DNA of 64,000 bases, taken from positions 1 through 64,000 of IMG/VR virus record IMGVR_UViG_3300034068_000566; one strand, 5' to 3'. This DNA is from a virus. The notes beneath the pieces were generated by a model that saw only the letters and a program-made list of their open reading frames with translations, searched no databases and had not been told where the DNA came from. A program made the translations under genes and the position numbers. Below, in pieces: positions 350 through 41,930 of the stretch (the stretch's first letter is position 1; every line of letters starts with the position of its first letter).

Positions 350-384
350 AACTACATTATACAGGCTTTTTAACTTAGCAAAGT

Positions 385-948: not shown

Positions 949-1040
949 TTATCCATCTCCTTTGACCATATGATAAAGCACTTATCACATTGTATTCCAT
1001 CTTTTCGCATATACCATTTATGATCACACTCTTTTGCCAT
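945..1040 (-). CDS. Small Cys/His (zinc-finger-like) protein
   Basis: MAKECDHKWYMRKDGIQCDKCFIIWSKEMDN; its stop overlaps the next start codon. Confidence 0.5.
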   Translation of the reverse strand: MAKECDHKWYMRKDGIQCDKCFIIWSKEMDN

Positions 1041-1400
1041 AAGCACACCATATTCTACCGTCTGTCATGGTTTGATGAAGCTCCCAAAAAAGAGGATCTT
1101 TGTGGCTCATCTCACATTTTGAGCATTCGTTTTTATTCATATACTAATCTTACCCTATTTGTGGGTATAGAAAGAACACTCCTACTAAAGCAATAACTAA
1201 CATAAATGATAATACCGCTATAGCAATATAGTCTTTCACGCAGACAGCCCCATTCTTAGATGAGCCTTACATACACTTGACATAGAATAAACTAAGCCTA
1301 CTTTGACAAGGTCGTTATACTCTGCTGGTTTGTCGCAGTAGAAGCATTTTTCTTTTAATGTAGCCATACATCTATTGTAGCAGATCAAAAATATCTAGGT

Positions 1401-2075
1401 TTAAATCCCTAGATGTCCATGCCAGATGTTATAGGCCAGTGGGTCCCACTGATTTCCAAAAAGGCTAAGGTGTCTATTATCTATCCAGAAATCATCAGTA
1501 TATCCAGATCCAATAAGTGTGTACCCGTATCTGGCAAGAATTTCTCTTTGTGTCTTTTTAACTTTTTCATCAATATCTAATGCTTGGTTAGAGCTTTCTT
1601 TATTTTCTAGCACAATAGTAGAAAACCTATACCTTGATAGTGGCATATTTATCAATGATAGAAGATTTACTGTGTCTGTATCTATAGATAAATGATCTAT
1701 CTGTTTTGGAAAATTATTCTCTTCAAAGTATTTATCCCAATTAAATGTAGTGGCATCACCATGTACGCATGGGTTGGATCTATTTTTATTATACTCATCT
1801 ACATAATGTTGCTCAATTTCTATTCCAACACCTGTCCAGCCAAACTCTTTTTCAAGCATATAGGTATTATTTCCATCACGCCAGTGTGAGGAACCAACTT
1901 CAACATAGGTTCCATTTTCCTTATCGCCACAAAGCCTTAAGGCAAAGGCATTTATAAAGGTAGCATCCTCATGTTCTATATTTAAAGATGCCTGAGTAAA
2001 TGCTTTAATAGTACGAATACCCTGTTTATAGTCATCTATAGTTATTTCCTGTAACTCTGGTAGTATTGGCTTCAT
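1401..2075 (-). CDS. FkbM-like SAM-dependent methyltransferase
   Basis: YVEVGS..GNNTY.LEK..GWTG..IE...IDHLSID motifs; paralog at 18350. Confidence 0.7.
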   Translation of the reverse strand: MKPILPELQEITIDDYKQGIRTIKAFTQASLNIEHEDATFINAFALRLCGDKENGTYVEVGSSHWRDGNNTYMLEKEFGWTGVGIEIEQHYVDEYNKNRSNPCVHGDATTFNWDKYFEENNFPKQIDHLSIDTDTVNLLSLINMPLSRYRFSTIVLENKESSNQALDIDEKVKKTQREILARYGYTLIGSGYTDDFWIDNRHLSLFGNQWDPLAYNIWHGHLGI

Positions 2076-2597
2076 ATTACAAGCATACCATGCTAAAGTT
2101 TTATACCTTTGTTGTCTTTTAAGTTCGGCGCAAAATAGAGGTTAATAAACCTTCCCATGCCCTAAAAGGGCACTATCGGTTAGTATCCAGCGGTTTTCAT
2201 ATATATATTATCTCAGAAATTGCGGGGGATGTCAAGAAAGACCCAAATATCCCTATGGTAATTCCTTAAAGAAGTCTATACCTATATACCACTTAAAGAG
2301 ATATAGCCCAATCTCCCATTGACGTTTGATAGGGTATCCCCAGTTAGCAAGATAGATACCGATAGCGTAGTTAGAAGTCATCTTGCCATAGTGTAGCTTC
2401 ATGTTAGACGAATGACCTTCGTAATGTTCATATTAGGTTCTTCTCTTAATGCCATAGCTCTGGCTTCTTCTTCGTTATCGGCAAAGACCTCAAGATCAAA
2501 TGCTCTGGCATATTCTAGTAGTGAGATTTTATATATGTTCATACTTTAAGTATAGCGGAGATAGGATGGTTTGTCAATATAGGTTCCGTGCAAAAAG

Positions 2598-2872
2598 TTA
2601 TCCACAGGTTTAGACATAATCTGGATGATCTAATGGAGTAGGTGCTGTGATAAGACATTTACATTCCATGCACTGAGCATCATCTAACAAGTACCCAGAA
2701 ATCTCATAGGTCTCATGATCAAATTGGACTGTTACCCTTAATAATGTAGATCCACAACAAGGACAAACAGGTGTTGGGATACCTCTGAGATTTACCATAT
2801 ATCTATAATATCAGAGAGTTATCCACATGTCAATAGGGTGGTTTGGTATAGTTATCCACAGGTTTATCCACA
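2598..2872 (+). promoter_or_regulatory. Cluster of four perfect DnaA boxes (TTATCCACA)
   Basis: Copies at 2598, 2819, 2852 and 2864, all in the same orientation; AT-rich tract at about 3140-3215. Confidence 0.65.
2610..2798 (-). CDS. Small zinc-ribbon protein
   Basis: CPCCG...CMEC; leaderless start 6 nt after TGATATTAT. Confidence 0.6.
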   Translation of the reverse strand: MVNLRGIPTPVCPCCGSTLLRVTVQFDHETYEISGYLLDDAQCMECKCLITAPTPLDHPDYV

Positions 2873-3657
2873 GAAATATGTTACTGATTATATTATTAGA
2901 CAAGGTTTAAGTGGAGCAAAGTGGAGGATAGTGGAGTATAGAACATTTTTAAGAGGGGCGTCGTAATGTACCAAACCCCATAGCCCCATATCAAACACTT
3001 ATACCACATATCCCCAAACATGTCAAACCTTATATCCCCATAGCTCGATAGCGCATTATATACCAAACATTAGTGTTTGTCAAGTATATTTTGTACCAAA
3101 ATAGTATGACAATTTCCTGTGAATTTGGATCAATATCGTAATATAAATATATAAATGTTTTATAAAATTAAATAAAATAAAAGAAAGTTATTGTTTTATA
3201 TATAGTGTTTTATATAGGGGTGTTTGGGTATCAGATGGTGTTCTTTATCCCCTGGATTATTTGGCGGGGATCGTAATGTCTGACAGGATAAGAAAACACG
3301 CTGAGGCGGGGGACCTAAAGAAGTATAGATACTATAAGTAAAGAAACTGTCATAGTAATAAACCCTATAGCTATAAAGATAGAAACACAGTCTGGTTTTT
3401 TATCATTTGGTTCTTCATGGTCTTGATGCTTAGACAAACCATTATTAATAAAGCATGGTCCACCATATTTAGAGAAATAATTTCTACCCATAAAACCATT
3501 ATACATCTATTTGACAAACAAGGTTTGATATGCTAGAATCCTGGCGATTTTTTAGAGAGGTTCGTAATACCTTGGTTTGGAAAATGTTACTCGAAAACCT
3601 GGGCTATTTTTTAAGAGTTCGTAATAGATTGTTTTCAAAAATAAATTTCGAAAATCC

Positions 3658-3951
3658 CTATTCGGGATCGTCTAGCTTTTTCTCATAGGCAATGTCTAAT
3701 AAGGCTGTTAGATTGTCAACGCCTTCTAACTCTTCATCTGTTATATTCATTGCGGCAAGGAACAGGTCAAAGGTTTCCTCAATATACTTTTCAGACAAGG
3801 GTGTAGGAGTAACCAATTCATTAGCAATAAGATATGCCATAGGCAAGCCCAGGTCGTTATACTCCATGAACATGCTCATCTCTTCATCATCCCTGAAATC
3901 AATCCAAAGCTGGCCAAGGATAGCGCATTGATCCTCAAACTCTATATTCAT
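3658..3951 (-). CDS. Hypothetical acidic phage protein
   Basis: ORF overlapping its neighbours in a minus-strand operon. Confidence 0.6.
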   Translation of the reverse strand: MNIEFEDQCAILGQLWIDFRDDEEMSMFMEYNDLGLPMAYLIANELVTPTPLSEKYIEETFDLFLAAMNITDEELEGVDNLTALLDIAYEKKLDDPE

Positions 3952-4235
3952 TCTGCTACTTCCTGTATCTTGAAAAACGCTTCAATGTTTTCATATTCAT
4001 CTCTAGGATCAAGGTCACGCATTTCACAGAACACATTCCAAACATAGTCAATAATTTCTTGAGAGTTCTTAGTAGGCTTAGCCCAATCAACAGCAATCAT
4101 TTTACATAGTTCAAGGACATCTTCATATTGCTGAAAGAACTCAGGTGGTAAGTAAGCACTATCAATCTCTAAGTTGTGTTCCCATAAGAAGGCTAGGACT
4201 TGTACCTTGCCTATTTTTTTAGTCTTCCCAATCAT
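3948..4235 (-). CDS. Hypothetical protein, possible paralog of 3658..3951
   Basis: Similar length and L..LW...PT spacing. Confidence 0.5.
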   Translation of the reverse strand: MIGKTKKIGKVQVLAFLWEHNLEIDSAYLPPEFFQQYEDVLELCKMIAVDWAKPTKNSQEIIDYVWNVFCEMRDLDPRDEYENIEAFFKIQEVAE

Positions 4236-4476
4236 GATTTCTCCAGTCCCTGTAATCGTGGTGCATTCGTGGTTCGTTAATTATCTTTTCTCGTTCTGCT
4301 TGGGCACTCTCTAATACTACCATAACTCTACTAAAAGTTAAAGTAGGTAAGACTCGTGCTACCATTTTTCCTACCTGCTCTAAGTCAAGATTGAGGTCGC
4401 TGACAATGATATTTAATTTTTGTGCTATCTTCTCTTCACTTGTCGTACCGCTAGAATTGCGTATAGAAAATGTCAT
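4219..4476 (-). CDS. Hypothetical phage protein
   Basis: ORF with SD and upstream TACAAT. Confidence 0.55.
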   Translation of the reverse strand: MTFSIRNSSGTTSEEKIAQKLNIIVSDLNLDLEQVGKMVARVLPTLTFSRVMVVLESAQAEREKIINEPRMHHDYRDWRNHDWED

Positions 4477-4550
4477 GTTTCCCCTCTCTCTCTATTGTAC
4501 CGCAAAAAGGAAAGAAGGGCAAGCCCCACGCCTGCCCCCCTTGTCCTATG

Positions 4551-4709
4551 CTAGCGAGAGGTGACCCGTTCCCCTTGCTTGAGAGCGCTAAGACTGGTAT
4601 TGTCAACAAACTTACCATTCTTGCGAAGTACAATACGTTGAGACTTACCGTAACGGGTATCCCATGTTTCCAGGTACGGGACGGTCTTTGCTTTTGCTTT
4701 CTTGGCCAT
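4551..4709 (-). CDS. Small basic hypothetical protein
   Basis: MAKKAKAKTVPYLETWDTRYGKSQRIVLRKNGKFVDN...; AAGGAG SD; hairpin just downstream. Confidence 0.55.
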   Translation of the reverse strand: MAKKAKAKTVPYLETWDTRYGKSQRIVLRKNGKFVDNTSLSALKQGERVTSR

Positions 4710-4719
4710 GTGTTTCTCC

Positions 4720-5076
4720 TTAGTTAGTTAGTGATAGATGTGGTGCGTATGCATTAATAAATGCGTTAAATTCAACAGGGTGACTATCGGTAACAGTATT
4801 ATTAGTAAAGTCAACAACAATGCTTTGTTCGCCTAGGTCCCACGACTCATTGTTAATAGCATAGATACCAAAACCGTGCTCCTCTAGTAGGCTGTGTTGA
4901 ATAAGATAACTAATCATCATGCGGGTGGCATATGAAGAGTCTGACCAACGGACACGAGCATGTGTCAGCGCAGCAGCAATGTCAGGTTGCCAATCTGTTT
5001 GGCCCCAATGACTATAGAGTACTACACTGGGCCCTGACTCTGAGTCTTTAAATATAAAATTAATTCTTGCTCCCAT
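4720..5076 (-). CDS. Hypothetical phage protein (LYSHW motif)
   Basis: MGARINF...VLYSHWG; translationally coupled to the upstream ORF. Confidence 0.6.
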   Translation of the reverse strand: MGARINFIFKDSESGPSVVLYSHWGQTDWQPDIAAALTHARVRWSDSSYATRMMISYLIQHSLLEEHGFGIYAINNESWDLGEQSIVVDFTNNTVTDSHPVEFNAFINAYAPHLSLTN

Positions 5077-7058
5077 TATTGTCCACCTTCTTCGTCATAA
5101 CATCCGCAACATTCAACGCAGATCTGTTCATCATCCTTGTAGCAGTTAGGGCACATGTACTCTGACATATTCATCTCAGGGTCCTTGCACCATTCACATA
5201 TGGCAACGCATAGTTCATCAAAAGTGTATTCAGATAAACGCTTATCTAGTCTGTTAGTCTGTATCGTCATCATCGCTTGGGTCTGAGATGTATCCACGGT
5301 TGGCCATCCACTCTAATACATCTTCTTGGTGTTGTTCGGCACCGTATTCTAATGAGAAGCCTGCTCCATTGCTAACGGCGTCACATAAGTATAGCCACAT
5401 GTCATCCTTACTTACTGTGGCCTTCCATTCAGGGTCATCTAAAATATTATTAATAGTGCTCCATGTCCACAGCCACACTAGTGATAGGCCAAGGTCGGTT
5501 GAGTCTAGAATATCTAGACATTGGTTTAGTTTATCTTTATCATCGGGTTTCATATTACTATTTTACTCCTCTTCCTCATCCTCGTCAAGTTCATCCTCAT
5601 AACGTTGGATAACTTCAACTTGAACATCTGTACCCTCTATCCAAGGCCTCTCAGTAATAAAATATCCAATACGATTAACAAAACTATAGCCAGCCCAGAT
5701 ATAGGTGCCTCCATCATCACCATCACCATAAGTCCAAACAATGTAATCATCTGCCTCCTGTATGAATTTGAGTTCGTCGCCATATGTTTCAAACATATAG
5801 CCATACTCTCCATCGCTAAATGAAGCATTAGTGTCTATATGATTAGGGATTGGTTTGTAGGTATCAAACCATTTGTCATAGTCCATTTCAATAAAATTAT
5901 TCATGTGGGGTCCTTTCAAGGTTAGTACGGTCTATACTTAAATTATACGTCAAGCAGTAGGCATTTGTCAAGGCCTCCATATATCCCTGCAAAAATCTGT
6001 CATCGTTATCTTCCATAGCTTCTTGACAGTCCAGCATTTCTACCTTAAGCCAGCCATGCATTAAATCAATTAGCGGTATAGAGACATCCTCTAAGGCTTT
6101 CGTTAAATGGTCGGGGATAAAAGGATACTTATCACTCATTTATAATCCCCAATAGGTGATCACAGGTATCAATTGCTCCCATGTAAAATGAATCTGATTC
6201 AAAGTACTCATCATCGGGAATCTCAATACCCTCTTGTGCGTCTGCCATATCTTGTTCTAAAGAAATCCTGTGAATATTTATATACTCTCTTAATGTATTT
6301 AGGTCCATATATTAATTATAGGGGTTTGAGTTGATTTTTACAAGCGGTGTGGGTGTGATACTGGTCACATCACTATGGGATGAGGCAAAGATTGTGCCTG
6401 GAAGTTTATGTGTACTTAATTTAACAATGGCCTGGTGAGGGCACGGACAAATCGGGGTAGCAATATATTCATCTTTCCAATAAGTAGTAAACTCCATAAG
6501 AGTATCACACTCAGTACAAAGAAACTCATGCTTAGTCCAGTGGTTTGAAAACATTAGTCATCCTCATCTTCATCTAAGAAATCATTATAGGAACCAAAGG
6601 TAGGCGTAGCCCAGTCAGGAGCATCAATACCCCAATTATCGGGGGAGTAAACAACATCTCTTGTACCGTCAGGATTCATTAGTCAAAGTATCCTTCTGCC
6701 CATAGGCCTTGTAAGAATTCGTGAGCGGTAACTAAATAATTATGAATAGCAGGATTCTCATCAGCATTAATTAACAGATCAGCAGAGCCAACCCCATAAA
6801 TCATATTATCTAAATCTTCTTTAGTATAGCCCATCATAGGTAAAAGTCATCTCCTTCTTTATATCCATAGTATTCGTTATATGATTGTTTTAGTGTATCA
6901 GGAGCGTATGACATAAATTGCCATTCAGCATACTCACTACCCTCATCTAAATTTCTATCATTCCATTGCTCAAAGAGTTCTTGCTCAATATCTACCTGAA
7001 TTGCTCCAAGGATGTGTTCGCCTACTGTATCTGTAAATGGTTCTATTGTTTGGGTCAT
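5076..7058 (-). other. Run of short, mostly acidic early ORFs (5076, 5254, 5563, 5897, 6312, 6834 and smaller ones)
   Basis: Tightly packed or overlapping minus-strand ORFs with no recognisable domains. Confidence 0.55.
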
Positions 7059-7176
7059 GTATTAATTATCGCACAAACCCTGCAAAATGTCAACTCCTTA
7101 CGTAATCCAATTCCTGGAAAAATATCATTGCTTACGTAATCATTGATTTTAAAAAATGTCAAATTCGAAAATCTTG

Positions 7177-7250
7177 CGATCTGTATCGGACTTGAACCGA
7201 CGACCTCTACCGTGACAGGGTAGCGCTCTAACCAACTGAGCTAACAGACC
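7177..7250 (-). tRNA. tRNA-Asp (GTC), CCA not encoded
   Basis: GGTCTGT TAGCTCAGTTGGTTAGAGC G CTACC CTGTCAC GGTAG AGGTC GTCGG TTCAAGT CCGAT ACAGATC G cloverleaf. Confidence 0.95.
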
Positions 7251-7256
7251 TAATGG

Positions 7257-7286
7257 TGAGCAGTTTGAAATCTTGCTCAGGATTTT
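7257..7286 (-). ncRNA. Compact H-type pseudoknot element, copy 1 of 5
   Basis: AAAUC CU GAGCA A GAUUU CAAAC UGCUC. Confidence 0.65.
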
Positions 7287-7290
7287 TTTG

Positions 7291-8307
7291 TTAGGCTAAC
7301 GCCATAACATTTTGAACAACTTTTAACAAGCGATTCTTTTCTGCGTTAATAGCAGGATCAAATCCACTTGCGCTTGCGAGAATAGATTCGTTAGAACCAC
7401 CACGAGCAGAACGATACCAGTCAAGGCGTTCGGTTAGCGCATTGAACGCACCCCAAGCAGAACCAGCAATCATTCCGTTAAACTCACCTGTGTAAATATC
7501 ATTGACCACGTCAATTTTATTTTCCCACTTTTTAAGTGAACCCTTAGAATCTTTTTCAGGCTTAGGGTAAGCAGCAAGAATGATGTTATTGAAATCAACA
7601 GCATTGACTTCTTTTTCAATCATAGCCTTAGCCATAATGTCAAATTCGTCCATATACTTATTAGCCATGCCAAGAGTTTCACGAGCAATTTGTACCTTGC
7701 CGTTAGCAGTTTGAGTATGGCGAATCTTGAAAGATTGCTTGATACCATTCTTTTTCTTGATTGAACCAAGAGCAAGATTGAGAGTGTTAGCGCATACAAC
7801 ACGAACAGGTGTGATACTTGCTTGAATAGCGATTGAGCCGTCATGTGATGTGTTGATGAGCAAATAAGTTTTAACCTTATCGGCAACACCAGTAGGGTCA
7901 AGAATTGTTTCACGTTCTAGTGCTAACGCACCGAATACAACACGACCACCCTTAATTGAGCCAGCAGTTTCCCAACGACCACCGCCGTCTAGGATATTGT
8001 CACCGAATGAGAATAGATCCTCATTCTGTAAAACATGGTAGCGTTCACCAACTACACCAAGAATATCTGTCTGAGTGTTATCGGTGGGATTAGTACGCAA
8101 GACATATTGGTACGCCTTGTCGCTTGTTAGATGTGTAGGGGTTTCTAAATCCTCTAAGCGAACATTCCACCCGTCAAGATTTGCTAATGAAAGCATTTCT
8201 GATGTGGTTTTTTCCTCTGAGAATACAGTACCCAATCCATGCCAAGCAGGTTCACGGAATGAAGCAAAACTTGCTACCCCATTTTGTGATTCTAGTTCAT
8301 GTGCCAT
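7291..8307 (-). CDS. DUF932-family phage/plasmid protein (TIGR03299-like)
   Basis: MAHELE...AWHGLG...Y..LQN...ETAG...GG.VF...SHDG...TPVRVVCANTL...RHT. Confidence 0.85.
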   Translation of the reverse strand: MAHELESQNGVASFASFREPAWHGLGTVFSEEKTTSEMLSLANLDGWNVRLEDLETPTHLTSDKAYQYVLRTNPTDNTQTDILGVVGERYHVLQNEDLFSFGDNILDGGGRWETAGSIKGGRVVFGALALERETILDPTGVADKVKTYLLINTSHDGSIAIQASITPVRVVCANTLNLALGSIKKKNGIKQSFKIRHTQTANGKVQIARETLGMANKYMDEFDIMAKAMIEKEVNAVDFNNIILAAYPKPEKDSKGSLKKWENKIDVVNDIYTGEFNGMIAGSAWGAFNALTERLDWYRSARGGSNESILASASGFDPAINAEKNRLLKVVQNVMALA

Positions 8308-8468
8308 GAGTTTATTTCCTTTCGTTTGATTGTTAATTTAAGTATAACATTACGGACTGACAAAAGCAAATCGGGATAGTTAAACATGGACAATCTGGAC
8401 ATTTTTTCCGTGATCTTAATCACATGATCGTAACTTGACTTTTAAGCTGGCCCGTTCGAAAATTTTGT

Positions 8469-8498
8469 GAAGCAGTTTTAGGACGTGCTCAGGTCCTT
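8469..8498 (-). ncRNA. Pseudoknot element, copy 2
   Basis: AGGAC CU GAGCA C GUCCU AAAAC UGCUU. Confidence 0.6.
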
Positions 8499-8515
8499 TG
8501 ATTAGTAGCCCCCTA

Positions 8516-8920
8516 CTAAACTTCTATTCGGTCAACACTTGATGAAAGATATTCAACACCTTCAGGATAATTAACAGAATCAAAATCAATATCGTGAATT
8601 AAATTTAGTGCTGACTCTTCATCACGAGCACGACATGTCACTGAATATTGAACTGTAACTTCTAATTCAAATTCTTTTGACAATTCAAATCCGCAAATGT
8701 TAGCGATCTGCTCCGCTTCTGCTTCATTGATTGAAGCCTCTTCCAAAGCATTCATAGTCCAGTCAAACATGTCATCACGCAAGCGCTGTAGGGTGCCTGC
8801 TGTTTCATAGTCACGCTGCGCTAAATTCTGGGAATGTAGAACTAAATCATTAATTCGTTCATCCTGCTTAGCAATAGTGGCCTTAAGAAAATCCTCTGTG
8901 GCATTTGTAGTTGTAATCAT
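8516..8920 (-). CDS. Hypothetical phage protein
   Basis: Coupled ORF with a coiled-coil-like N-terminus. Confidence 0.6.
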   Translation of the reverse strand: MITTTNATEDFLKATIAKQDERINDLVLHSQNLAQRDYETAGTLQRLRDDMFDWTMNALEEASINEAEAEQIANICGFELSKEFELEVTVQYSVTCRARDEESALNLIHDIDFDSVNYPEGVEYLSSSVDRIEV

Positions 8921-9186
8921 TAGTTATCCAATCCTTCTGTTAGTTGATTCATTTCTTTCATTGTAGCAACCATGTCTGACATATCTGATTCTGATAAGCA
9001 AATAGACGAGACAAGTGTTGCTGTTAGTGCTGATAGTGAGGCACTGTATTTAAATAGCAACCGAGCAAACTCTTCATTTTCCATGTATTCACGGTTTTTA
9101 AACATAAATTGCGCTAAACCCATTAGTTCATGATCAAAGAGGGCTTCCTCTGTTGCTTCTTTAATTTGTAACATTGTGCTAATCAT
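8920..9186 (-). CDS. Hypothetical phage protein
   Basis: ORF with AAAGG SD. Confidence 0.6.
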   Translation of the reverse strand: MISTMLQIKEATEEALFDHELMGLAQFMFKNREYMENEEFARLLFKYSASLSALTATLVSSICLSESDMSDMVATMKEMNQLTEGLDN

Positions 9187-9212
9187 TGGGCTACCTTTCT
9201 AAAGTTTTGTGT

Positions 9213-9241
9213 TGAGCAGTTTATAGTCATGCTCAGGACAT
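9213..9241 (-). ncRNA. Pseudoknot element, copy 3
   Basis: GUC CU GAGCA U GAC UAUAAAC UGCUC. Confidence 0.6.
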
Positions 9242-9254
9242 TTCCGTTAAGGAA

Positions 9255-9677
9255 TTATAGGTATTCTGATACAGCGTTGTAAGTGCTGGTATTGACAGTT
9301 TCCTCATCTGTCATTTTAAGAATACGAATTGCGTTTTCCAATTCCTTCTTTGACTCACGATAAGTGCTGGCATGAATAAACTCTACTTCACGCTCAGGCT
9401 CAGGTGGCATTTGTGCTTCTGATACTTTGAGGTCAAAGTCAATGTTTAGAGTGTCGTTATACGCACGATAGTTAGTGCGTAAGTTAAAGGCTTGCTTGAT
9501 GTTATCAAGTGCGAAAGTAAGAACTTCTGCTTTCCATGCTTCCATAGCCTTCTCAAACTTTAGTTCATTTTCTTTTTGTGTTGCGTAGTTAGTTTCTAAC
9601 TTAGCAAGTGATACCTCTAGTGCGTTGATGATTTTAGGTGTTGCGATTTTGACATTTATTGCTTTTGCTCTAGCCAT
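9255..9677 (-). CDS. Hypothetical phage protein
   Basis: 140-aa ORF with its own promoter at 9711-9732. Confidence 0.65.
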   Translation of the reverse strand: MARAKAINVKIATPKIINALEVSLAKLETNYATQKENELKFEKAMEAWKAEVLTFALDNIKQAFNLRTNYRAYNDTLNIDFDLKVSEAQMPPEPEREVEFIHASTYRESKKELENAIRILKMTDEETVNTSTYNAVSEYL

Positions 9678-9735
9678 GTGTTTTCTCGTTTCTGTTTGTG
9701 GGGTATTTCTATTATAGGGGGTGGGTGTGACATTT

Positions 9736-9764
9736 TGAGCAGTTTGTATTCATGCTCAGGAATA
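9736..9764 (-). ncRNA. Pseudoknot element, copy 4
   Basis: UAUUC CU GAGCA U GAAUA CAAAC UGCUC. Confidence 0.65.
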
Positions 9765-9774
9765 AGTAATTAGA

Positions 9775-9939
9775 TTACTTTGCTGTCCAAGTTGTGTAGC
9801 GGTGTGCGCCATTGACATCTAGTTTGACTCGGACATTACCATTTGATAGTGGAGTAATCTCTGCGATTGTTCCAGTTACCTTTGATTTTTGTGTGGTGTA
9901 GGTGTCGCCTACCTTGTAAGTTGCTGTATTAACTGACAT
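9775..9939 (-). CDS. Small SH3-like beta-barrel protein
   Basis: MSVNTATYKVGDTYTTQKSKVTGTIAEITPLSNGNVRVKLDVNGAHRYTTWTAK; has SD and promoter. Confidence 0.6.
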   Translation of the reverse strand: MSVNTATYKVGDTYTTQKSKVTGTIAEITPLSNGNVRVKLDVNGAHRYTTWTAK

Positions 9940-10190
9940 TGTATTTCCTTTTCTGTTAGTTGGTTATAGATTAAGTATAACATTTCCTACTGACATTTAT
10001 CAAATTATTATCTGATAATCTCACTATGTGGAATTGTTATTTGGTTATACCTAAGTATGACAGAAAATGTCATAAATGTCAATTCTTAATCGTAAACCTG
10101 GGTGTGATAAATGTCACCTTAATCTGCTATGTGATAAATCTCACACGTGTCGAAAATTTCTGCGGGGAAGCACAGAAATTAACTTATTAC

Positions 10191-11809
10191 TTATTCATCA
10201 CTATCAACATACACATAGAGAGAGATCATCTCATCATGCTTGAAAGTGATAACATCTTTCTCACCAAACTCATCAGTGAACTCAACATGATAGTCATCGC
10301 CGTTATTGCTATCGCTAATACCTGTTACTTCAACAACCTCATCTGAGATACCGATTAGATCATTTAGCATTAGCTGGTTTGGTTGTAAGCGATCAGCAAA
10401 GATTAATTCCATAGTTTTTATTGTAGCAGACATTTTATCCATCCATTTCTACGCAGTCCATAAAGCATTCCTCGCACATATACTCATCAATAGTGTAGTC
10501 ATCTTCATTAAGGCAATCGTGTTCAACGCAAGGGCATTTATTTATTGTCATCATGCGAACATCTCATCTAATTCTGAGTCTGACATTTCTACCCACTCGT
10601 TACTATTTATTAGAAATTCGGGCTCGCCAATAATAGACTCGCAATCAGAAAAATCGGGGAATTGGTAATTGGTCATTACTTCCTCGATATCAGTCGTTTC
10701 AAGATAAAACTCATGATACATGCTTACCTTATAAGTCTTAGACATTATTCGTTATCCTCATCTACTGGGTCAATAAACCATGATAGGTTATGTCCTTCAA
10801 TAATAGCATAGGCTGGTGACTTTGCTTGCCCTCGCCAAGTAACCTGAAAGTTACCAATCATAGGCATATCAATAAGGCGATCATAGTCCTCATCATAGGC
10901 GGCATCAATAGCGGCAATACAAGTAGGTATCATTTCAACGGGTACTGGTGGATAATGATTACCCTGTAAGTGATAACGCAATTGCGTTTCAAGGTCTAAG
11001 GTTGTGTCTGCTAATCCAATTGCTGTTACTGATCCCATTATATTTTCTCCTCAATGTCTGCGACATAAACATCACTTCTGCGAATTCCGCCATATTCTAA
11101 ATTAGAATCAAACATGCTGACGGCATCTTCTTCATTGTCTGCTTCAACGTTAATAAAACAAGTAAACTCATATAGTGCCATTATTTATACCTCTACGCCT
11201 TCGTTGTTGTAAATAGTTAATTCTTTTATGTCTGCGACATAAACATTATCTTTATCTATTCCATATTTTAATTGAAATTGAAAAACATCAATAGCCTCAT
11301 CATGGTTTTCTGCTTCTACATCTATGAAAGTGTTAAACTCAAATCTTGCCATTACTTAGTTACCACCTTTCTACCTTCACGATAGAATACTTTTGTGTAG
11401 CAAACCAATTCGGGAGTGTAAATATTGACAGTTGAGTATTCGTTAGCCGTTCCCCAATCGGTAAACTGAAAAAATGCTTGCCACGCTTTCATTTCATCAG
11501 GGTAATCTTTCTGCCAGTGTGGGGCATTGCTATCATAGGCGACAGTTATTTTATACATTAGTTTCCTTCTTTCGTTGTTGATATTTCTGATACTACCATG
11601 TCGTACTGACAATCGCAGGGTTCTGTGTAATCAAATGAGCAGAAATAGCAACCCATCATTTCATCGCATACACGGCACTGATAGCGGAATTGTACTTCAT
11701 CGCAGCAAATCTGAGATATATCCCAAATTAAATAGTGATCTGTCTTATCTATAACTGTAGCCATAGGGGGCAACCTTCTTTCTTTTTCTTTATACTGTAA
11801 GCCTACCAT
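10191..11809 (-). other. Run of short early ORFs, including tandem paralogs 11038..11181 and 11185..11352
   Basis: MALYEFTCFINVEADNEEDA...VYVADI versus MARFEFNTFIDVEAENHDEA...VYVADI. Confidence 0.55.
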
Positions 11810-12066
11810 TTATCACTGACATTTTCAATTTTTAATAGGCTTATCTTAAATAGTAAGACGGCGTGTCGTGTGATTAATCTCACAACCTGGGTAAGTTATC
11901 CACAGTTCTTAAATCACCCTGTGGACAACCTTTCGAAAAAAATAAAGGACAGCCTGCAGTAGCTGCCCTTTAAATTATTTTTTATTATCCAGATCCAGCA
12001 ATCATTAAGATAGCAATAAAAATACCAGTTGCAATTATTAAGATTTCCATTTTTATTATTCTCCTT

Positions 12067-12801
12067 TTATTTTTTAGTGGCAGAAAAAATTATGTCACTC
12101 TTTGAGTATACACACAATGAGCATGAAACGCAAGCCGAGCCAGCAGTGCTAATCAATGGAATTTGCTTATTATTTTCAGGACATTTAGCAGCAGGGCGCC
12201 CGATCATTTCTTTAACATCTGCTTGACCTATAGCAAAATTCTTAGCAAGGTATGCCATGCGTACGCCACTATTAATTTTTAGATCAACAGCAGTTTTAAC
12301 ATTCTCACTATCAGCAGAAAAATACAGTGAGAGGTTTTCAATATCTTTTAGAATAAGGGCAGCAGACTTAACACGAGTGTAAACCCAGAATTGTACATCC
12401 GCATTAAGTTTAATTACATCGGACCACGCAATGGCATAAGTATCATTAAAGAAGTCACCGTCCCAATGGATACGGAATAACATGGGCGCATTCTTTTTTA
12501 CACAATCAGCCTTAAAATCAGCAATCATCTCACTGATCAAATTAAGCATGGTTAAATAGTCTGCGTCTTTTAGCAGGGCCCAATTATGAAGTAGGTTAAC
12601 CTTTACGGAAGGGAAGACCTTTTCAAGTTTTCCTGCGTAGCATATGCTCTCACATACACTAGTGGCACCAGGGCACGAGAAAGCCTTTCCAGCAGGTAGG
12701 CCGAACGTGTTAGCAATTGCTGCTTGTTTTCCATTTTTTGTGACAAGGTTAGCCACCTTTCTATCGTTAGAACGTTTTAATTTTAGGGGATTAGTAGTCA
12801 A
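12067..12801 (-). CDS. Gp88-family (radical-SAM-like Cys cluster) protein
   Basis: CPGATSVCESICYA, FRIHWDGDF, FWVYTR, NLSLYFSAD and C-terminal C..C..C. Confidence 0.75.
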   Translation of the reverse strand: MTTNPLKLKRSNDRKVANLVTKNGKQAAIANTFGLPAGKAFSCPGATSVCESICYAGKLEKVFPSVKVNLLHNWALLKDADYLTMLNLISEMIADFKADCVKKNAPMLFRIHWDGDFFNDTYAIAWSDVIKLNADVQFWVYTRVKSAALILKDIENLSLYFSADSENVKTAVDLKINSGVRMAYLAKNFAIGQADVKEMIGRPAAKCPENNKQIPLISTAGSACVSCSLCVYSKSDIIFSATKK

Positions 12802-13262
12802 GGCTAAGACTCATTTCTAATACACGATCTTCATGGGTAATAGAATCTGCTAATTCATTTAGCCAGCAATGATCACACATAGGCATATATTCATCAACAG
12901 CATTTTCATTACACTTAGGGCAGGTAGTAGAATAGAATTCATCAAAGAATTCATCGTTTTCAAATGTCATGGGGGCACGACCTTTCTTAGTTGTTGTTAT
13001 TTTTTAATTCTAGCATATCGGACTGACATTTATTCTTGCGAGAATAAACTTTCTTAGACTTAATAGGGGTCGCCGCATTTGACCTACGCAATTCCATAAG
13101 CCTGCGTAAATCCTCAGCGGTTTTCTTAGTTGACATACAATAATCTTAGCATACTTAAAGTTAAAATACAAATTATAAAATTGTGACAAATCTCACAAAA
13201 CCTGGGCCTGTGGACAAAGTACGTAAAGCTGTGGATAACTTTTCGTTTCGAAAAATTTTTAG

Positions 13263-13292
13263 TGAGCAGTTTAAAATCTTGCTCAGGATTTT
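13263..13292 (-). ncRNA. Pseudoknot element, copy 5
   Basis: AAAAUC CU GAGCA A GAUUUU AAAC UGCUC. Confidence 0.65.
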
Positions 13293-13446
13293 TATTTTTA
13301 TTTTTTAATTCGTTCACTTCGCAAAGCAACTTGCAATCTGCGAATTTCTTTTTCTAATTGGATGTTGCGTTGCCAAAAAGCAATCATCATTGTAAGTGAT
13401 CCAGCTAAAGCAATTACAATTGCGATTAGTGTTCCGTTATCTAAAA

Positions 13447-15975
13447 TCAATTTGCCATCTCCAATTCTTTATAGCAAGCAATCGCAAATCTATTTGCGTC
13501 AAATCTTGGGTTATCAGTTTCAAACATTAGAGAAAATTCATCTACCAAATCAGCAAATAAAATTTCTCCTTGCTCATCAAAAACAGATGTAGCAAAATAA
13601 TTGCTAAGAATTTCAGCGGTTGCGACATAGTCTTTACGAGTCATCATTATTCGGCCACCTTTAGAATTGCGTAAGTGCCATTTGCGTTTATATTTTCAAG
13701 GACTGGCTTGATAGCAGGCGCAAGTAAATCTTTTAGCATTGATTCTAAAAGCATTATCTGACTTACTTCATCAAGTGCTAAAAATTGTTGAGCCACTGGA
13801 TGAGTTTCATCAAATTCGGTTACAAACTTTAGAGCGTGTTCTATTGATATTGTCATTTTATTTCCTATTCGTTAGTTGGATTCGGGTGTATTAAATAATT
13901 GTATATCTTGGCACTGACAAGGCTCAACATGGTATTCCTCGCCTGTACCAAAAAAGATTAGGCCAGTTGAGTAGCAATCCTCGCAGGGTATTGTTAAAAC
14001 TGAGTTTATCATTAAGCACCTACCTTTATGGCAACAGTTGCCCAAAAGTTTTTGATTCCACGAGTTGAGCGAACCTCAATAGCGTATGCCTCAAACTCTG
14101 AGCCGTACCAAACATCAGGGCGGGGAGTTGCGTATTGGATAACGCCTTCATCATGGCGATTAGTTGAGCGATAAGTCTTGCCGATTAGCAAGTCCTCTAT
14201 TGTGTATGGTTTTGCTGACATTAGTTGTCACCTTTCTTTATTTCTTTAATTGTAGCGGATAGGACTGACAAAGCCTGAGCCTTGCTTGCGTTGCGTTGCG
14301 CCTGTATTAGCGCCTTATATTCCTCTAGTGTCATTTTTGACCTTTCGTTAATTGCTTACTATGTAAGTTTAGCAGATTAGACTGACATTATCAAATTAGA
14401 AATGCTAACAATTCGGACATTTTGATATTTATTTTTGTGACTATTCTCACACTGTAAATTTTTCTATAACTTTTGTATAACAATCTTAAACCTATCGGCG
14501 TGTCGGTTTGACTTTTCGAATTTTTTTTCACTCCTTAGAAAGTAAAAATAGAAAACGAAAAGCAAAAAATAAAGTTAAGAAAAATAAAGCTCTGCCGTCA
14601 GTGAAAAAAGTTAAGTCCATTTTTTATTCTCCAATTCCGTTAAGCATTTTTTCTAATTCTAAAAGTTGATCATTAGTTAAATGATCTAATTGTATTGCGT
14701 TAGCAAATCCGAATAAATCTATTTCCATTTTTACACCTCTTCATTTTCTCTAATGGCATCTTCAAAATCTAAAAGCGATTGGTGATAAGCGATTGGGTCG
14801 CACTCTCGCAAAATCTGTGAGGCAGAAAAACTTAGGTTGCCAATTTCAAAAGGCTTATACGATTCGTCTAGCATGTCATCAAACCAAGTTTTAATTTCAA
14901 AGGCTACATCAAAATCTAGCATTAGTTATTTTCCTTTTCTATTTTTTTTACATTTAGATAATCGGTTACATTTAAGTAAGTGACATAAGCAGCCCAAATA
15001 AATAAGGGAATAAGAATAAGGTTTATCATTTAGTTAGCCCCTCTAATAGTTCCGTTAATTGCTAATAAGTCACACTCTACTTTTAGAGATGTGTTTTTGT
15101 TAAGGCGTGAAGGCAGGGCAGAAATAAAATCAAGCACCTGTTGCTTAGAATAGAAAGGCATTTTTTTAGTGTTGCCGTTATATGAGGTTAGTGTAAGTGT
15201 TATCATTATTTTTTCTCCATTACTTTAATTATGACATCTAAATCTTTTTCGGTAAGCAATACGCTTGCGCTACCCCATAGGGCAGCATAAGTGTGACCAG
15301 TATCGCCATATTTTTCTTTTGCTAAATCATAGGCTAATTGTCTTTTGTCATATGTATCCATTACTTACACCCCTCGCATGTGAACTTAGTGAACTTTTTA
15401 TCTTTAGCAAATACCTCTAAGTAATTATCATTACAGTTAGAGCATGCGATAAGTGCGGTAGAGGCTCTGCCGTATAGGTGAGGCTCTGATACGGATAATA
15501 GGGCGTTATCTATAACCTCTTGTGTTTTTAGTATAGTCATTTTTGACCACCTTTCGTTTTCGTTATATAGCAATTTTAGCATTAGGGTCTGACATTTTGC
15601 CTTATTTAGACAGCGTGTCGGAAATTTCTTTTTGTGATATAGCCCACAATTCTTTACACTTATCAGGGTTGTTCCACCATGGGAAACCCTCGTGATATTG
15701 GGCGGGGGCTAATACAACCTGACCGCAAGGGCATAAGTTCATCAACCCTTTAGGGTAATCGCTTACAGTAGCGAACTTAGTCCAAATACTCATTTAGTAG
15801 ACACATACCAATCTGTCCACATAGGGAATTGCTCAGGGTCACCATCATAGTAGTAACGCTCAATATTTTGCTCACAATCTTGGCAGAAAGTGAATTGCTC
15901 ATCTCCATAGTTAGAGATAGCGGAAAGCATAGGGTTATGCTCATGTGTTTTTGTTAATGTAGTCATTTTGACCAC
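13447..15975 (-). other. Run of very short early ORFs (13447, 13647, 14012, 14731, 15361, 15602, 15790 and others)
   Basis: Packed ORFs, many with AAAGG SD behind a TGTCAG promoter. Confidence 0.55.
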
Positions 15976-16019
15976 CTTTCTTTAATTTCTTTATACTGTA
16001 AGTTTAACACAGGGGTCTG

Positions 16020-16520
16020 ACAAATTGAGGGGTACAAATAGGATAAAACGGACATTGTGAGGTAGGTCACATGTGTTTCATGTCACATGATTAGATCGTT
16101 ATCAAATTGTTATAATTATTAGGGCGTGTCGGCTTGACAAGGATATACACATCACCCTGTGGATAACTTTTTTTCGACATTTTTTTATGTGGTGTATATC
16201 ACATATAAATATTACACAATTACGGCGTGTCGGGTTGTTTTTGTCAGTGCTACCTGCTATACTTGCCATATAACAACAACGAAAGGACATAAAAATGTCA
16301 CTTACCCTATACCCTGTGAATCAGTACTATTTAACTGATAACACTCAATTTATCCACTGTGGCGAGAGCCAATTCCGTCACTATTGCGACAAGCACTTTC
16401 AGGCTCAGGGGTGCTATTTCTGTGAGTTTGACTACGCTCAGCCTTGCGAGTGTGACGAGTAACACATCAGACACACCCCCAAAAGGGGTCAAAATGTCAG
16501 TTCCCCCTGCTATACTTCCA
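16020..16520. promoter_or_regulatory. Divergent control region with CRP-like, DnaA, GACAC and TGTCAG elements
   Basis: Strand switch; TGTGA-N6-TCACA-type sites at 16056, 16072, 16188, 16451; DnaA box at 16158; GCGTGTCG boxes at 16122 and 16223. Confidence 0.65.
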
Positions 16521-16548
16521 TTATAACAACAACAAGAAAGGTTCAAAA

Positions 16549-17156
16549 ATGAACACTAACACAATCTACGCAACAGATGAAATCTGCTGGGCTATTGAAA
16601 ATGATGACATCTGTGACGGCTTCGGCTGTGCCCCTTGCTCAATAGAAATTGACGGAGAATACACTCCCCTATATCGCTCAACTAACTAAGGAGAATTGAA
16701 ATGAACCCATTCACATACGCAATAGACTGGTTAGATGATAACGCAGACTTCATGGCACCAGTAGGAGCCTTCATTGGCATAGCAATCGCAATCGGATTAT
16801 GTTTTATTAACGGGGGTAACTAAATGAATACACTAGAACGCATTAGACAAGAACAACAAGAACGCTACGCATTACAGCGAGCAAAAGACAAGGCAAGAGG
16901 TGAGGCACTATACGCCCTCAACATTGCTCCACTCAATAACGATTACCTACTAGCGAAAGAAGAAAACTAAATGATAAACGCAACACTAACAACAGTAGGC
17001 GGATCTACTAAGGGTATGACATTTGATAGCAAAGAAAACCTATTACAATTTATTGAATTGTTTGGTGATACGTTGCCATTAGGTACAGCGGTAAATATTG
17101 ACGCCCCACTAGCAGGTATTCACTCAGGCTGGATACAGGGCAAGGCTAAGAAATAA
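16549..17156 (+). other. Four short plus-strand ORFs (16549..16689, about 16700, about 16824, 16971..17156)
   Basis: Consecutive ORFs with SD sequences behind the promoter at 16495. Confidence 0.55.
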
Positions 17157-17157
17157 T

Positions 17158-17208
17158 TTTTGGGGTAGTAGTGTCTAACTTTTACTAGGCACTACACCAA
17201 AAGTTTTT
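17158..17208 (+). terminator. Probable intrinsic terminator
   Basis: GTAGTGTCTA...TAGGCACTAC stem followed by a T-rich tract. Confidence 0.5.
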
Positions 17209-17351
17209 GCTGGTACTACACTATTTATTTTTATTGTTTAGTTATGGGCGCACTAAAATTTGTTGTTTTATTTTCTAAAATCACGTATCATGCACAAGCT
17301 AGATGTTGTCAGAAAATCTCCAGTATGAAATCTGAATGAAATCTGAAGTTT

Positions 17352-17972
17352 ATGATATACTTAAGTATGAGAAAACAATACACAAAAGCCCAATATAACA
17401 AAGATGGTTTAAAACAATGTACAAGTTGCCAGGAATACAAAGAGACATCTGAATTTCATAAATTTTCCAAGGGTCCAGATGGATTAAAGCAATGGTGTAA
17501 GGTTTGTGTAAAACAATACGATTTAAAGGAAAATGACGCAACACGTATTTTTCCACGGAAGCTAGATGAGAATGGAAATATCCACTGTAGAAATTGTGGA
17601 GAATACTTTAAAGAAGATCAAATGAAACAATCTAAGACTGGAAAGTATAAGGGGTTATCCTATTGTACTGAATGTGCTCCATTACTATCTAGAACACGTA
17701 CACTTCAGAAATATCATTTGACTCTTGAGGATTATCACAATTTGTTACAAAGTCAAAACTTCTCATGTATGATTTGTAAGCAAAAAGATACAAGTTTCAG
17801 AAAACGACTATCTGTAGATCATGATCACGCTTGTTGTCCAGGAGAAGGCTCTTGTGGTAATTGTGTAAGAGGTTTGCTATGTCATCACTGTAATGCAGCT
17901 CTAGGAAATGTAAAAGATAATATTCAAACACTACAAATCATGATAGAATATTTAAATGGGAATCTTAGATAA
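17352..17972 (+). CDS. Endonuclease VII-family HNH nuclease with N-terminal zinc fingers (start may be the second ATG, MRKQ)
   Basis: Y.LT.EDY..L...Q...C.IC...LSVDHDH...VRGLLC..CN..LG..KD. Confidence 0.85.
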   Translation: MIYLSMRKQYTKAQYNKDGLKQCTSCQEYKETSEFHKFSKGPDGLKQWCKVCVKQYDLKENDATRIFPRKLDENGNIHCRNCGEYFKEDQMKQSKTGKYKGLSYCTECAPLLSRTRTLQKYHLTLEDYHNLLQSQNFSCMICKQKDTSFRKRLSVDHDHACCPGEGSCGNCVRGLLCHHCNAALGNVKDNIQTLQIMIEYLNGNLR

Positions 17973-18349
17973 TCTAGAAAACGCATGGGATGAACTTGAT
18001 CCTAAATACGAAAGCCTTGCTCAAAAAATATTTTCAGAAACTGTTTGCTCTAACTGCTCTTGCGGACAAGAGTCTAAGCTCATGCCTATAACCGATAACA
18101 TGGGTAGAGAAATTTTCTGGGGAGACCTAGGAAGACCAACTGACGCCTAATCCTCTATATGATCTAGATTCCACATTCTAATATCGGTAGCTGCAATACG
18201 TATTTTTTCAGATTCAATTTCATTTGTCGCTTCAACAACTAGCGTCATACTCAAAGGATAATATCCATCTGCAAATAAATCTTTTTTTGCGTGGAACTTA
18301 TAAGTCTCAGCACAAATCTTTTCATCTACTTTATAATAATATTTTGGCA

Positions 18350-19012
18350 TTATGGTGCTTCGTATCTTCCATAATATTTGTAGATCTCATATGGAATAAC
18401 AGTAGAGTCAACCCACCAGTCTTCATGACCTATCTTTGCAACTAGGGAATAGCCTAGGTTATTTAGAATTTCTCGCTGAGCATCACGCAAGGAAGCATTC
18501 TTGTAGTTGATAATATATTCGTGTTCAAAAGAAATAACGGTAAAGCGATATCTGGATAATGGCAGGGCAATTAAACCATTCAATGGTGTTCCAATAGGAG
18601 CAATAGGTCTTCCACCTTTATCCATAGGAGATTCAATATCAATTTGAAGGTAATCAATTTGTTTTGGAAAGTTGTTCTCTTCAAAGTATTTTAAATAATC
18701 AAAGGTTGTGGCATCTTGCATTAAACAAGGGTTTTTACGAACAGAGTTATATTCATCGACATTTCTTTGATCTAAATCAAAACCAACACCTGTCCAGTCA
18801 TATTCATTTTCCATTTTATAGGTTGTGTTTCCACTAATAGGACCTGCTGATCCCATTTCTACATAATATCCATTTTTCTTATATTCTAAGATATCTAAAG
18901 CAAACATATCTGAAGCTCGCATAACATCTCGTTTATCTCGCATATGTTTTTCAAAATCTGGTCGAGTCATATTATTTATTTCATTGATACGTTCAGTTAT
19001 ACGTTGATCCAT
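18350..19012 (-). CDS. FkbM-like methyltransferase (paralog of 1401..2075)
   Basis: YVEMGS..GNTTY...WTGVG.D...IDYLQID; shares DATTF...YFEENNFPKQID with the paralog. Confidence 0.7.
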   Translation of the reverse strand: MDQRITERINEINNMTRPDFEKHMRDKRDVMRASDMFALDILEYKKNGYYVEMGSAGPISGNTTYKMENEYDWTGVGFDLDQRNVDEYNSVRKNPCLMQDATTFDYLKYFEENNFPKQIDYLQIDIESPMDKGGRPIAPIGTPLNGLIALPLSRYRFTVISFEHEYIINYKNASLRDAQREILNNLGYSLVAKIGHEDWWVDSTVIPYEIYKYYGRYEAP

Positions 19013-19583
19013 CGTGTTCCTCTATTTCGCTAAAGAGTTCTTTATTGAAAAGAACTGGACTTTCTTTTGATCCTCTTACAAAGCATGTTGAAAAATATCG
19101 GGGGAGATCATCAAGAACCGCTAATGACTTATGCAGGATATTCCCACCATGTAATACCAAAGACCTAGCTTTAGGCTTATGTACAATACCTAACTCTGAG
19201 TACTCTAATTCTCCTCCAGCATACTCGTCATTATAATATAAACATACACCATACCTGATGTGATATGGCTCATCCTTTAACCAATAGTCTCTATGTTCCT
19301 GAATAGCTGCTCCTTCTCTATACCGTTGAAGTGCAACTGAGCCTACATACAATAATGATTCAAATAGGTTTTGTATTTGATTATCTATATCTTTAAATAC
19401 CTGTGGTTTGTCACCGTTATATTGCTTACCGTAGAAAAATCCATTTTTATAATCATCATCAGGTGATAGCCACCATTGCTCTTCATCTAAGCCTGATGCA
19501 AAATCTAAAACCTCTTTTTGTTGATCTACTGTAATAAAGTCCTCAATCTCATATAGATCTGGGGATAACCTGTTAATTTTCAT
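18993..19583 (-). CDS. 2OG-Fe(II) oxygenase (prolyl-4-hydroxylase-like)
   Basis: HRD...YYNDEYAGGEL...H...RY. Confidence 0.85.
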   Translation of the reverse strand: MKINRLSPDLYEIEDFITVDQQKEVLDFASGLDEEQWWLSPDDDYKNGFFYGKQYNGDKPQVFKDIDNQIQNLFESLLYVGSVALQRYREGAAIQEHRDYWLKDEPYHIRYGVCLYYNDEYAGGELEYSELGIVHKPKARSLVLHGGNILHKSLAVLDDLPRYFSTCFVRGSKESPVLFNKELFSEIEEHDGSTYN

Positions 19584-19584
19584 A

Positions 19585-19785
19585 TTACCATTTCCCTAAT
19601 GGACACTTAGCTTGTCGTAGCGTAGATTTTAATGCCATAAAACATCCACACTCTCTACACTTAATTAATCGTTTGTTAAAAGATGGACATTCATTACAAA
19701 TTGCCAACCTTTGTTCAATTAGCTCTTTATCACTCCTTGGTTGCGAAGGATCAAATAAGTCACTAAATTTTACATCATCAGACAT
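19585..19785 (-). CDS. Small Cys-rich protein (DUF6171-like)
   Basis: R..IC..C...C.ECGCF...K......CP..KW; paralog at 35780. Confidence 0.6.
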   Translation of the reverse strand: MSDDVKFSDLFDPSQPRSDKELIEQRLAICNECPSFNKRLIKCRECGCFMALKSTLRQAKCPLGKW

Positions 19786-19952
19786 ACTTCTATTATAGCG
19801 TATAAGGCTATAGGAACCAATCTAAGACATGTTTGGGGATGTTCCCCATAGATTGTCTATAGATGGTTTGGATATCCTCTATTTCGGCGAATTTAAATCG
19901 GCGAACTCTATATCCCGCCGTATTTTAATAAACTAATAGTATAATAAAACTT

Positions 19953-20225
19953 ATGAGCGTACAAGACTGGGCAGCATTAATTTTGAGCGTACTGACCATA
20001 GTTGGTATTATGGCGGGTGGAATTAAATTTCTCGTAAAACATTATCTCAGCGAACTTAAACCCAATTCAGGCTCGTCAATGAAAGACCAAATTTCAAGGT
20101 TAGAACATAAAATTTATGATGCTGATGTTAGTCGTAAGCAGATGAAAGAAGATCATAAAGTTATGAAAGACAAGTTAGACCGTATGTACGATATACTTTT
20201 AGACTATATTGCAAAATCTAAATAA
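19953..20225 (+). CDS. Membrane protein with coiled coil, possible holin
   Basis: One N-terminal transmembrane helix followed by a coiled coil. Confidence 0.4.
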   Translation: MSVQDWAALILSVLTIVGIMAGGIKFLVKHYLSELKPNSGSSMKDQISRLEHKIYDADVSRKQMKEDHKVMKDKLDRMYDILLDYIAKSK

Positions 20226-36806: not shown

Positions 36807-36819
36807 CATAGGAGAAAAT

Positions 36820-38926: not shown

Positions 38927-38944
38927 GAAATGGTATAATAAAAC

Positions 38945-41919: not shown

Positions 41920-41930
41920 AGGAGAAATAA

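Follow-up and report, generated by a model that had tools for sequence, protein, structure and literature searches.

The virus record IMGVR_UViG_3300034068_000566 of the IMG/VR database (95,289 bp, 88% complete), of which the first 64 kb were analysed here as the window, carries 14 promoter-like boxes of the form TGTCAG-N10-TANNNT, once with TGTCAC, in a block of about 8 kb. The boxes match the class of promoters served by the actinobacterial DNA-damage activator PafBC on all features visible in sequence, the comparison being with published promoters. The best explanation, which we hold to be somewhat probable on the basis of the presumed host and of analogy, is that the host's own PafBC-type activator, a protein with a WYL domain, reads TGTCAG on the phage promoters.

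Promoter boxes in the phage record

TGTCAG-N10-TANNNT has 13 exact matches in the window, against 0.86 expected and a maximum of 3 in dinucleotide-preserving shuffles. All 13 are confined to 8341-16516, and the other 79 kb of the record, including the part beyond the window, contain no match. Relaxation of the hexamer to TGTCRS adds two TGTCAC matches. The one at 9711-9732 looks real, as it is intergenic and lies 33 nucleotides (nt) 5' of an ATG. The one at 54758 falls within a structural gene, is probably due to chance and was rejected. The resulting 14 sites (13 TGTCAG and one TGTCAC) head 14 small-gene units, given here with the open reading frames (ORFs) behind them.

8341-8362, minus strand: PafBC-type box TGTCAG-N10-TATACT, 33 nt 5' of the ATG of the DUF932 gene 7291-8307
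8960-8981, minus strand: PafBC-type box within the 3' end of ORF 8920-9186, 39 nt 5' of the ATG of ORF 8516-8920
9711-9732, minus strand: variant box TGTCAC-N10-TATAAT, 33 nt 5' of the ATG of ORF 9255-9677
9974-9995, minus strand: PafBC-type box preceding ORF 9775-9939
11590-11611, minus strand: PafBC-type box overlapping the 3' end of the upstream ORF, 31 nt 5' of the ATG of ORF 11352-11558
11800-11821, minus strand: PafBC-type box preceding ORF 11558-11764
13007-13028, minus strand: PafBC-type box preceding ORF 12791-12970 and then the homologue of mycobacteriophage L5 gp88 (12067-12801, PF17338)
13898-13919, minus strand: PafBC-type box preceding ORF 13647-13856
14249-14270, minus strand: PafBC-type box preceding ORF 14012-14221
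14366-14387, minus strand: PafBC-type box preceding ORF 14221-14334
15573-15594, minus strand: PafBC-type box preceding ORF 15361-15540
16001-16022, minus strand: PafBC-type box, leftward half of a divergent pair, preceding ORF 15790-15966
16242-16263, plus strand: PafBC-type box, rightward half of the divergent pair, preceding ORF 16295-16462
16495-16516, plus strand: PafBC-type box preceding ORF 16549-16689

All 14 boxes are co-oriented with the next gene, at a distance of 27-41 nt from the -10 to the ATG, and a ribosome site of the GAAAGG type lies behind 13 of them. The orientation switches between 16022 and 16242, where the genes diverge. The -10 is extended by TGn in 11 boxes. The genes behind the boxes are ORFans plus the DUF932 gene and the L5-gp88 homologue. 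A preliminary description of this DNA had listed 12 boxes, all of which are present at their coordinates and on their strands; the boxes at 8960-8981 and 11590-11611 had been missed. Its account of boxes that sit just upstream of a ribosome site and an ORF, turn with the genes and lack a -35 element agrees with the placement above and with the sequence logo described below.

Conservation and likeness to PafBC promoters

With the L5-gp88-like protein (12067-12801) as query, IMG/VR yielded more than 570 relatives, of which the best 80 loci (81-98% identity, 35-40% GC) were used. These 80 loci hold 785 boxes, against 15 for a reversed-pattern control. Within 1.66 Mb of related DNA the spacer is 10 nt long in 791 cases, 9 nt in 16 and 11 nt in 3. 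Each single-base variant of TGTCAG is at least 10 times rarer in this DNA, every position thus being constrained. The logo built from 597 unique sites has the form A-W-W-TGTCAG-t-S-S-c-nnn-T-G-n-TAnAAT, with a -10 near consensus; the fifth base of the hexamer is A in 96% and the sixth G in 98% of the clade boxes. The TGTCAG element spans -28 to -23. Little information is present 11 to 3 bases upstream of it, where a -35 element would lie, and the adjacent three bases are A/T-rich. Because the enrichment over the control, the rigid spacing and the constrained bases occur together, the boxes are predicted to be promoters of a conserved -35-less class and not chance matches. The clade comprises hundreds of contigs in lake metagenomes. 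A reading of TTGTCA as a weak -35 element, with a second -10 located 17 nt downstream, fits 4 of the 14 boxes and was rejected.

PafBC-type WYL regulators are cellular DNA-damage sensors, and their relatives switch anti-phage defence. The in vivo consensus of PafBC promoters is tGTCgg(N10)tA(N3)T, without a -35 element and with the housekeeping sigma factor; the helix-turn-helix of PafB reads the GTC triplet, and the -26 element is located at -23 to -28 (PMC8635444). PafBC-dependent promoters of actinobacteria are read by sigma adaptation (PMC8635444, PMC11804915, PMC8223512). This promoter, also known as RecA-NDp or recA P1-type, extends to other Actinobacteria (review, PMC8223512), and PafBC is activated by single-stranded DNA (PMC11804915). 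The match to it claimed by the preliminary description is exact in core sequence, spacing and missing -35 (PMC8635444): the hexamer conforms to tGTC(g/a)g as TGTCAG in 13 of the 14 boxes, with TGTCAC in the other, TAnnnT follows after exactly 10 nt, and the logo is devoid of a -35-like signal. The phage boxes thus share with the promoters of Mycobacterium and other Actinobacteria TGTC-purine-G, the 10-nt spacer to TAnnnT and the lack of a -35 element. They differ in being viral, in their density of 14 within 8 kb and in lying ahead of ORFans, not repair genes. Further differences are the fifth base, which is almost always A in place of the G of the published consensus, a -10 that is nearer consensus and usually TGn-extended, and, in many boxes of the clade, a phased palindrome of the CRP type upstream.

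Boxes of the same form precede recA genes in environmental DNA. A metagenome collection was scanned for a box followed, 70-130 nt on, by codons for the RecA motif GKGS(I/V)M. The scan returned 80 loci with about 75 recA genes, most of which show, by reading, the actinobacterial N-terminus DREKAL...VIPTGSIALD. Low-GC contigs among them are L181 and L161 (44%) and L167 (47%). Contig L181, which is of lake origin and near to Nanopelagicales, has its box 32 nt 5' of the recA ATG and ahead of an AAGGAG ribosome site, a layout as in the phage, and this box is the only one in 13 kb. Its RecA is 100% identical to that of a metagenome-assembled genome (MAG) labelled Actinobacteria, 92% identical to that of acAMD-5 and 85-87% identical to RecAs labelled Candidatus Nanopelagicales. 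The box ahead of recA on such Nanopelagicales-like contigs is the one indirect sign of PafB/PafC in the presumed host lineage. The actinobacterial recA boxes have the identical TGTCAG form, and their flanks are like those of the phage boxes, A-rich directly 5' of the hexamer and with G/C at the second and third positions 3' of it. In a phage of 37% GC the latter is not explained by composition.

Likely host and the reader of the boxes

At about 37% GC, the phage differs widely from Mycobacterium and Streptomyces. The DnaE-type polymerase and the portal are 54% and 46% identical, respectively, to those of Stanwilliamsviridae Streptomyces phages, and the 244-residue protein at 12067-12801 (Pfam PF17338) is 54% identical to L5 gp88. 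A WhiB-like protein scores above the Pfam cut-off in each of the five relatives searched, of which four are complete and one is 89% complete, and keeps the four cysteines and the GIWGG turn; within the phage collection, WhiB homologues occur only in phages of Streptomyces, Mycobacterium and Rhodococcus. The whiB gene is missing from the 88%-complete record and, judged by its position in relatives, probably lies in the unassembled part. On the strength of DnaE, the portal, the L5-gp88 homologue and the WhiB of relatives, the phage is regarded as an actinophage. The WhiB-like gene at L103:1405-1686 (G318) has a consensus sigma-A promoter, rather than a PafBC-type box, about 660 nt upstream.

The DNA runs that contain the region are lake-water metagenomes, and no near-identical cultured phage was found. 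An abundance of leaderless genes, as predicted for a second promoter class of this phage (below), is typical of Actinobacteria. Actinophage-type genes, WhiB, leaderless genes and lake origin make the host very probably a low-GC freshwater actinobacterium, for which Nanopelagicales (acI) or a neighbour would be the obvious guess. The clade would then probably infect the bacteria that are most abundant in fresh water and about whose phages hardly anything is known. A search of genome contigs with the ribonucleotide reductase (RNR) of the phage was rejected as a route to the host, because its matches are related phage contigs mis-binned into at least five phyla and hence uninformative. The clade contigs L095-L102 (RNR 81-87% identical) were binned into MAGs of Chitinophagaceae, Flavobacterium, Bifidobacterium, Gammaproteobacteria, Luteolibacter, Bacteroidota and Beijerinckiaceae; their presence in unrelated MAGs represents binning contamination, which could mislead host prediction. 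The MAG labelled 'Bifidobacterium' was likewise rejected as a host clue, since four sampled genomes of its phylum are without WhiB and that phylum is therefore not Actinomycetota.

The mechanism proposed for a host PafBC is as follows. TGTCAG, at about -28 to -23, would stand exactly 10 nt before a strong -10 TAnAAT, often extended by TGn, and each promoter would give a leader of about 25-35 nt with a GAAAGG ribosome site, followed by one to several small genes. PafBC bound to single-stranded DNA would insert between region 4 of sigma-A and the DNA ('sigma adaptation'), whereby the housekeeping RNA polymerase could use promoters with a -26 element instead of a -35 element. The phage block would be switched on by single-stranded DNA that arises during infection, whether through injection, resection of ends, replication or breakdown of host DNA. 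We infer the host lineage, the binding of PafBC, the trigger and the timing. A wider proposal is more tentative: the lake-phage clade may have wired one block to PafBC as the host's alarm for single-stranded DNA, with sigma adaptation as a timing switch, perhaps with dozens of replicated decoy sites that soak up PafBC and with CRP-like sites that feed in the nutritional state. Promoters of this kind on a virus were not met with in any paper of the library searched. If the proposal is true, the phage would be the first known case of a WYL-type activator put to use by a virus, the host alarm would become a phage timing signal, and the system would be a counterpart of the sigma appropriation of phage T4 that needs no phage factor. 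Decoy soaking of PafBC would also blunt host repair and WYL-controlled defences.

Several observations weigh against a host PafBC as the reader. The boxes are absent from six cultured actinophages (BillNye, Tomas, Annadreamy, Grayson, Ankus and L5), the closest cultured relatives included, and are thus a trait of the lake clade and not general among actinophages. As the recA scan required the box, it indicates presence in such lineages, not frequency. In the four metatranscriptome runs with parts of the region, the assembled RNA contigs cross the boxes and no ends are visible. The extended -10 of 11 of the 14 boxes might fire without any activator. About 60% of the clade boxes have a phased CRP-like palindrome upstream, which indicates that other factors are involved, and a phage activator that escapes recognition could be among the many ORFan proteins made from the consensus sigma-A promoters.

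WYL, HTH_11 and sigma-70 region 2 domains were not found in the phage record, and 32 related records, including four complete ones, yielded no WYL either. The phage-made WYL analogue that the preliminary description offered beside the host protein is therefore unlikely and has no candidate. Its interpretation is supported in part, namely by the PafBC promoter match, the actinophage gene content and the actinobacterial recA boxes; the analogue and the terms 'early' and 'host-takeover' (below) are not supported.

An unlikely alternative is a phage-encoded activator outside the WYL family, or a sigma-remodelling pair, that is made from the leaderless sigma-A block and reads TGTCAG in the manner of T4 MotA/AsiA, the likeness to PafBC being convergence or mimicry of geometry. 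The block of near-perfect TTGACA-N17-TATAAT promoters at 2207-7093 fits an immediate-early supplier and encodes conserved small ORFans, most of its products being acidic. Sigma appropriation, as PMC8635444 notes, has the same geometry of a -10 with an upstream element near -26/-30. However, about 35 small ORFs of both small-gene blocks gave no informative Pfam or PHROG match and no DNA-binding, sigma-binding, MotA or AsiA family. For two conserved products of the sigma-A block no PDB sequence match was obtained, and the model of one of them is unusable (pLDDT 43). The other, the conserved 118-residue protein phrog_31860 (4720-5076, minus strand), gave a confident model (pLDDT 85, pTM 0.80) that is not a helix-turn-helix, and Foldseek found no fold match to it in the PDB. 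Moreover, neither the bases nor the spacing of the element differ from those of the host recA box, an identity that a phage-specific factor would not require.

Two phage systems with -35-independent promoters were compared. In the middle promoters of T4 (a -10 with a MotA box near -30), as in those of the lake phage, the place of the -35 is taken by an element that lies about 10-12 nt upstream of the -10 and is read, in the lake phage by proposal, via a protein at sigma region 4. The two differ in sequence, the lake-phage element being TGTCAG at -28 to -23 and not a MotA box near -30. The T4 factors are phage-encoded and remodel sigma region 4, whereas no MotA/AsiA-like gene was recognised among the about 35 ORFs scanned in the lake phage. 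In Thermus phage P23-45 the middle and late promoters are of the extended -10 type without a -35, and gp39 blocks -35 use (PMC3950348). Both P23-45 and the lake phage have -35-dependent and -35-independent promoters with extended -10 elements common, and P23-45 switches from the former kind to the latter. The P23-45 promoters are without a conserved -26 element, unlike the invariant TGTCAG of the lake phage.

It is improbable that the extended -10 fires with sigma-A alone and that TGTCAG serves instead as the operator of a phage or host repressor, or as a decoy that titrates host PafBC away from the genes of repair and defence. Such a role would suit the TGn of 11 boxes, their near-consensus -10 and the presence of fourteen boxes per genome, multiplied by replication. 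Cluster A stoperators, the sites of L5 gp71, are short asymmetric sites that contain TGTCA, are many per genome and are oriented with transcription; their 5' flanks are GC-rich and they keep no fixed distance to a -10. The phage boxes also contain TGTCA, are many and are transcription-oriented, and the phage shares the L5 gp88 homologue. Their rigid 10-nt spacing to the -10 sets them apart from 13-bp asymmetric repressor sites of this kind and is the behaviour of a promoter element, not of a dispersed operator. The L5 genome itself has no TGTCRG-N10-TANNNT site, and the three sites that lack TGn nevertheless retain the box. Such a role would also accord with a link between PafBC and phage resistance, as cited in PMC12848934.

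Very improbable is a reading of the box by another host factor, namely a different WYL activator, a complex of sigma-A with host or phage WhiB, or an alternative sigma factor. Relatives encode WhiB, and SiwR, a second mycobacterial WYL activator, acts via a -26 region (PMC10693628). On the other side, a sigma -35/-10 pair would need a spacer longer than 10 nt, and SiwR has as its site a 19-bp palindrome with GGA, not TGTCAG, at -26 (PMC10693628). A SiwR-type site was rejected on this difference in sequence.

Second promoter class and other elements

A second block is served by consensus promoters with the following positions.

2235, 2577, 2833, 3083, 5588, 5971 and 7093, minus strand, in the block 2207-7093: near-perfect consensus promoters TTGACA-N17/18-TATAAT

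At 2235, 2577, 2833, 5588 and 7093 the ATG lies exactly 6 nt past the -10, so that leaderless mRNAs are predicted; in the clade this offset is found in 164 of 886 unique consensus promoters. The genuinely immediate-early genes may be those of the sigma-A block, with the PafBC-type block as a possible delayed class that awaits single-stranded DNA. As the first genes expressed, those of the sigma-A block are at least as good a candidate. The terms 'early' and 'host-takeover', given to the PafBC-type block by the preliminary description, were assumptions, as the genes concerned are ORFans with a DUF932 gene and an L5-gp88 homologue and the sigma-A block competes for the first role. Between both promoter blocks lies a tRNA-Asp (GTC) at 7176-7250 on the minus strand. 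An Rfam scan of 1-20000 returned tRNA only.

Palindromes of the CRP/GlxR type were searched as TGTGA-N6-TCACA with at most one mismatch. The window contains 13, against 2.8 expected, and 11 of them lie within 8409-16466.

8409, 10103, 10130, 11869, 13182, 14436, 15633, 16056, 16072, 16188 and 16451: CRP/GlxR-like palindromes (TGTGA-N6-TCACA) upstream of boxes

In the clade the palindromes keep to four separate distances upstream of the predicted start (-64.5, -69.5, -74.5 and -85.5), and three of these four positions are spaced by about one helical turn. Action of a second factor on the PafBC-type promoters is probable.

Two further motifs were seen upstream of boxes. CGACACGCC precedes several of them (11860, 14497, 15612, 16123 and 16224, minus strand), although the excess is weak (5 versus 1.6 expected), and a DnaA-box-like TGTGGATAAC lies upstream of the boxes at 11800 and 16242. 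The motif CCTGAGCAYG-N5-AAACTGCT is present in five copies, versus 0.06 expected, at 7259-7281, 8471-8493, 9215-9237, 9738-9760 and 13265-13287 on the minus strand. The copies lie just past stop codons or beside the tRNA and match no Rfam family.

Outside the two blocks, ten consecutive genes of 219-295 residues are located at 36087-43331 on the plus strand. The three that were scanned are 2-oxoglutarate-Fe(II) oxygenases (PF13640), and a further copy of this gene type is found at 18993-19583 on the minus strand. From 58915 to record position 69879, on the plus strand, an open frame of 3654 residues is followed by one of 1533 residues.

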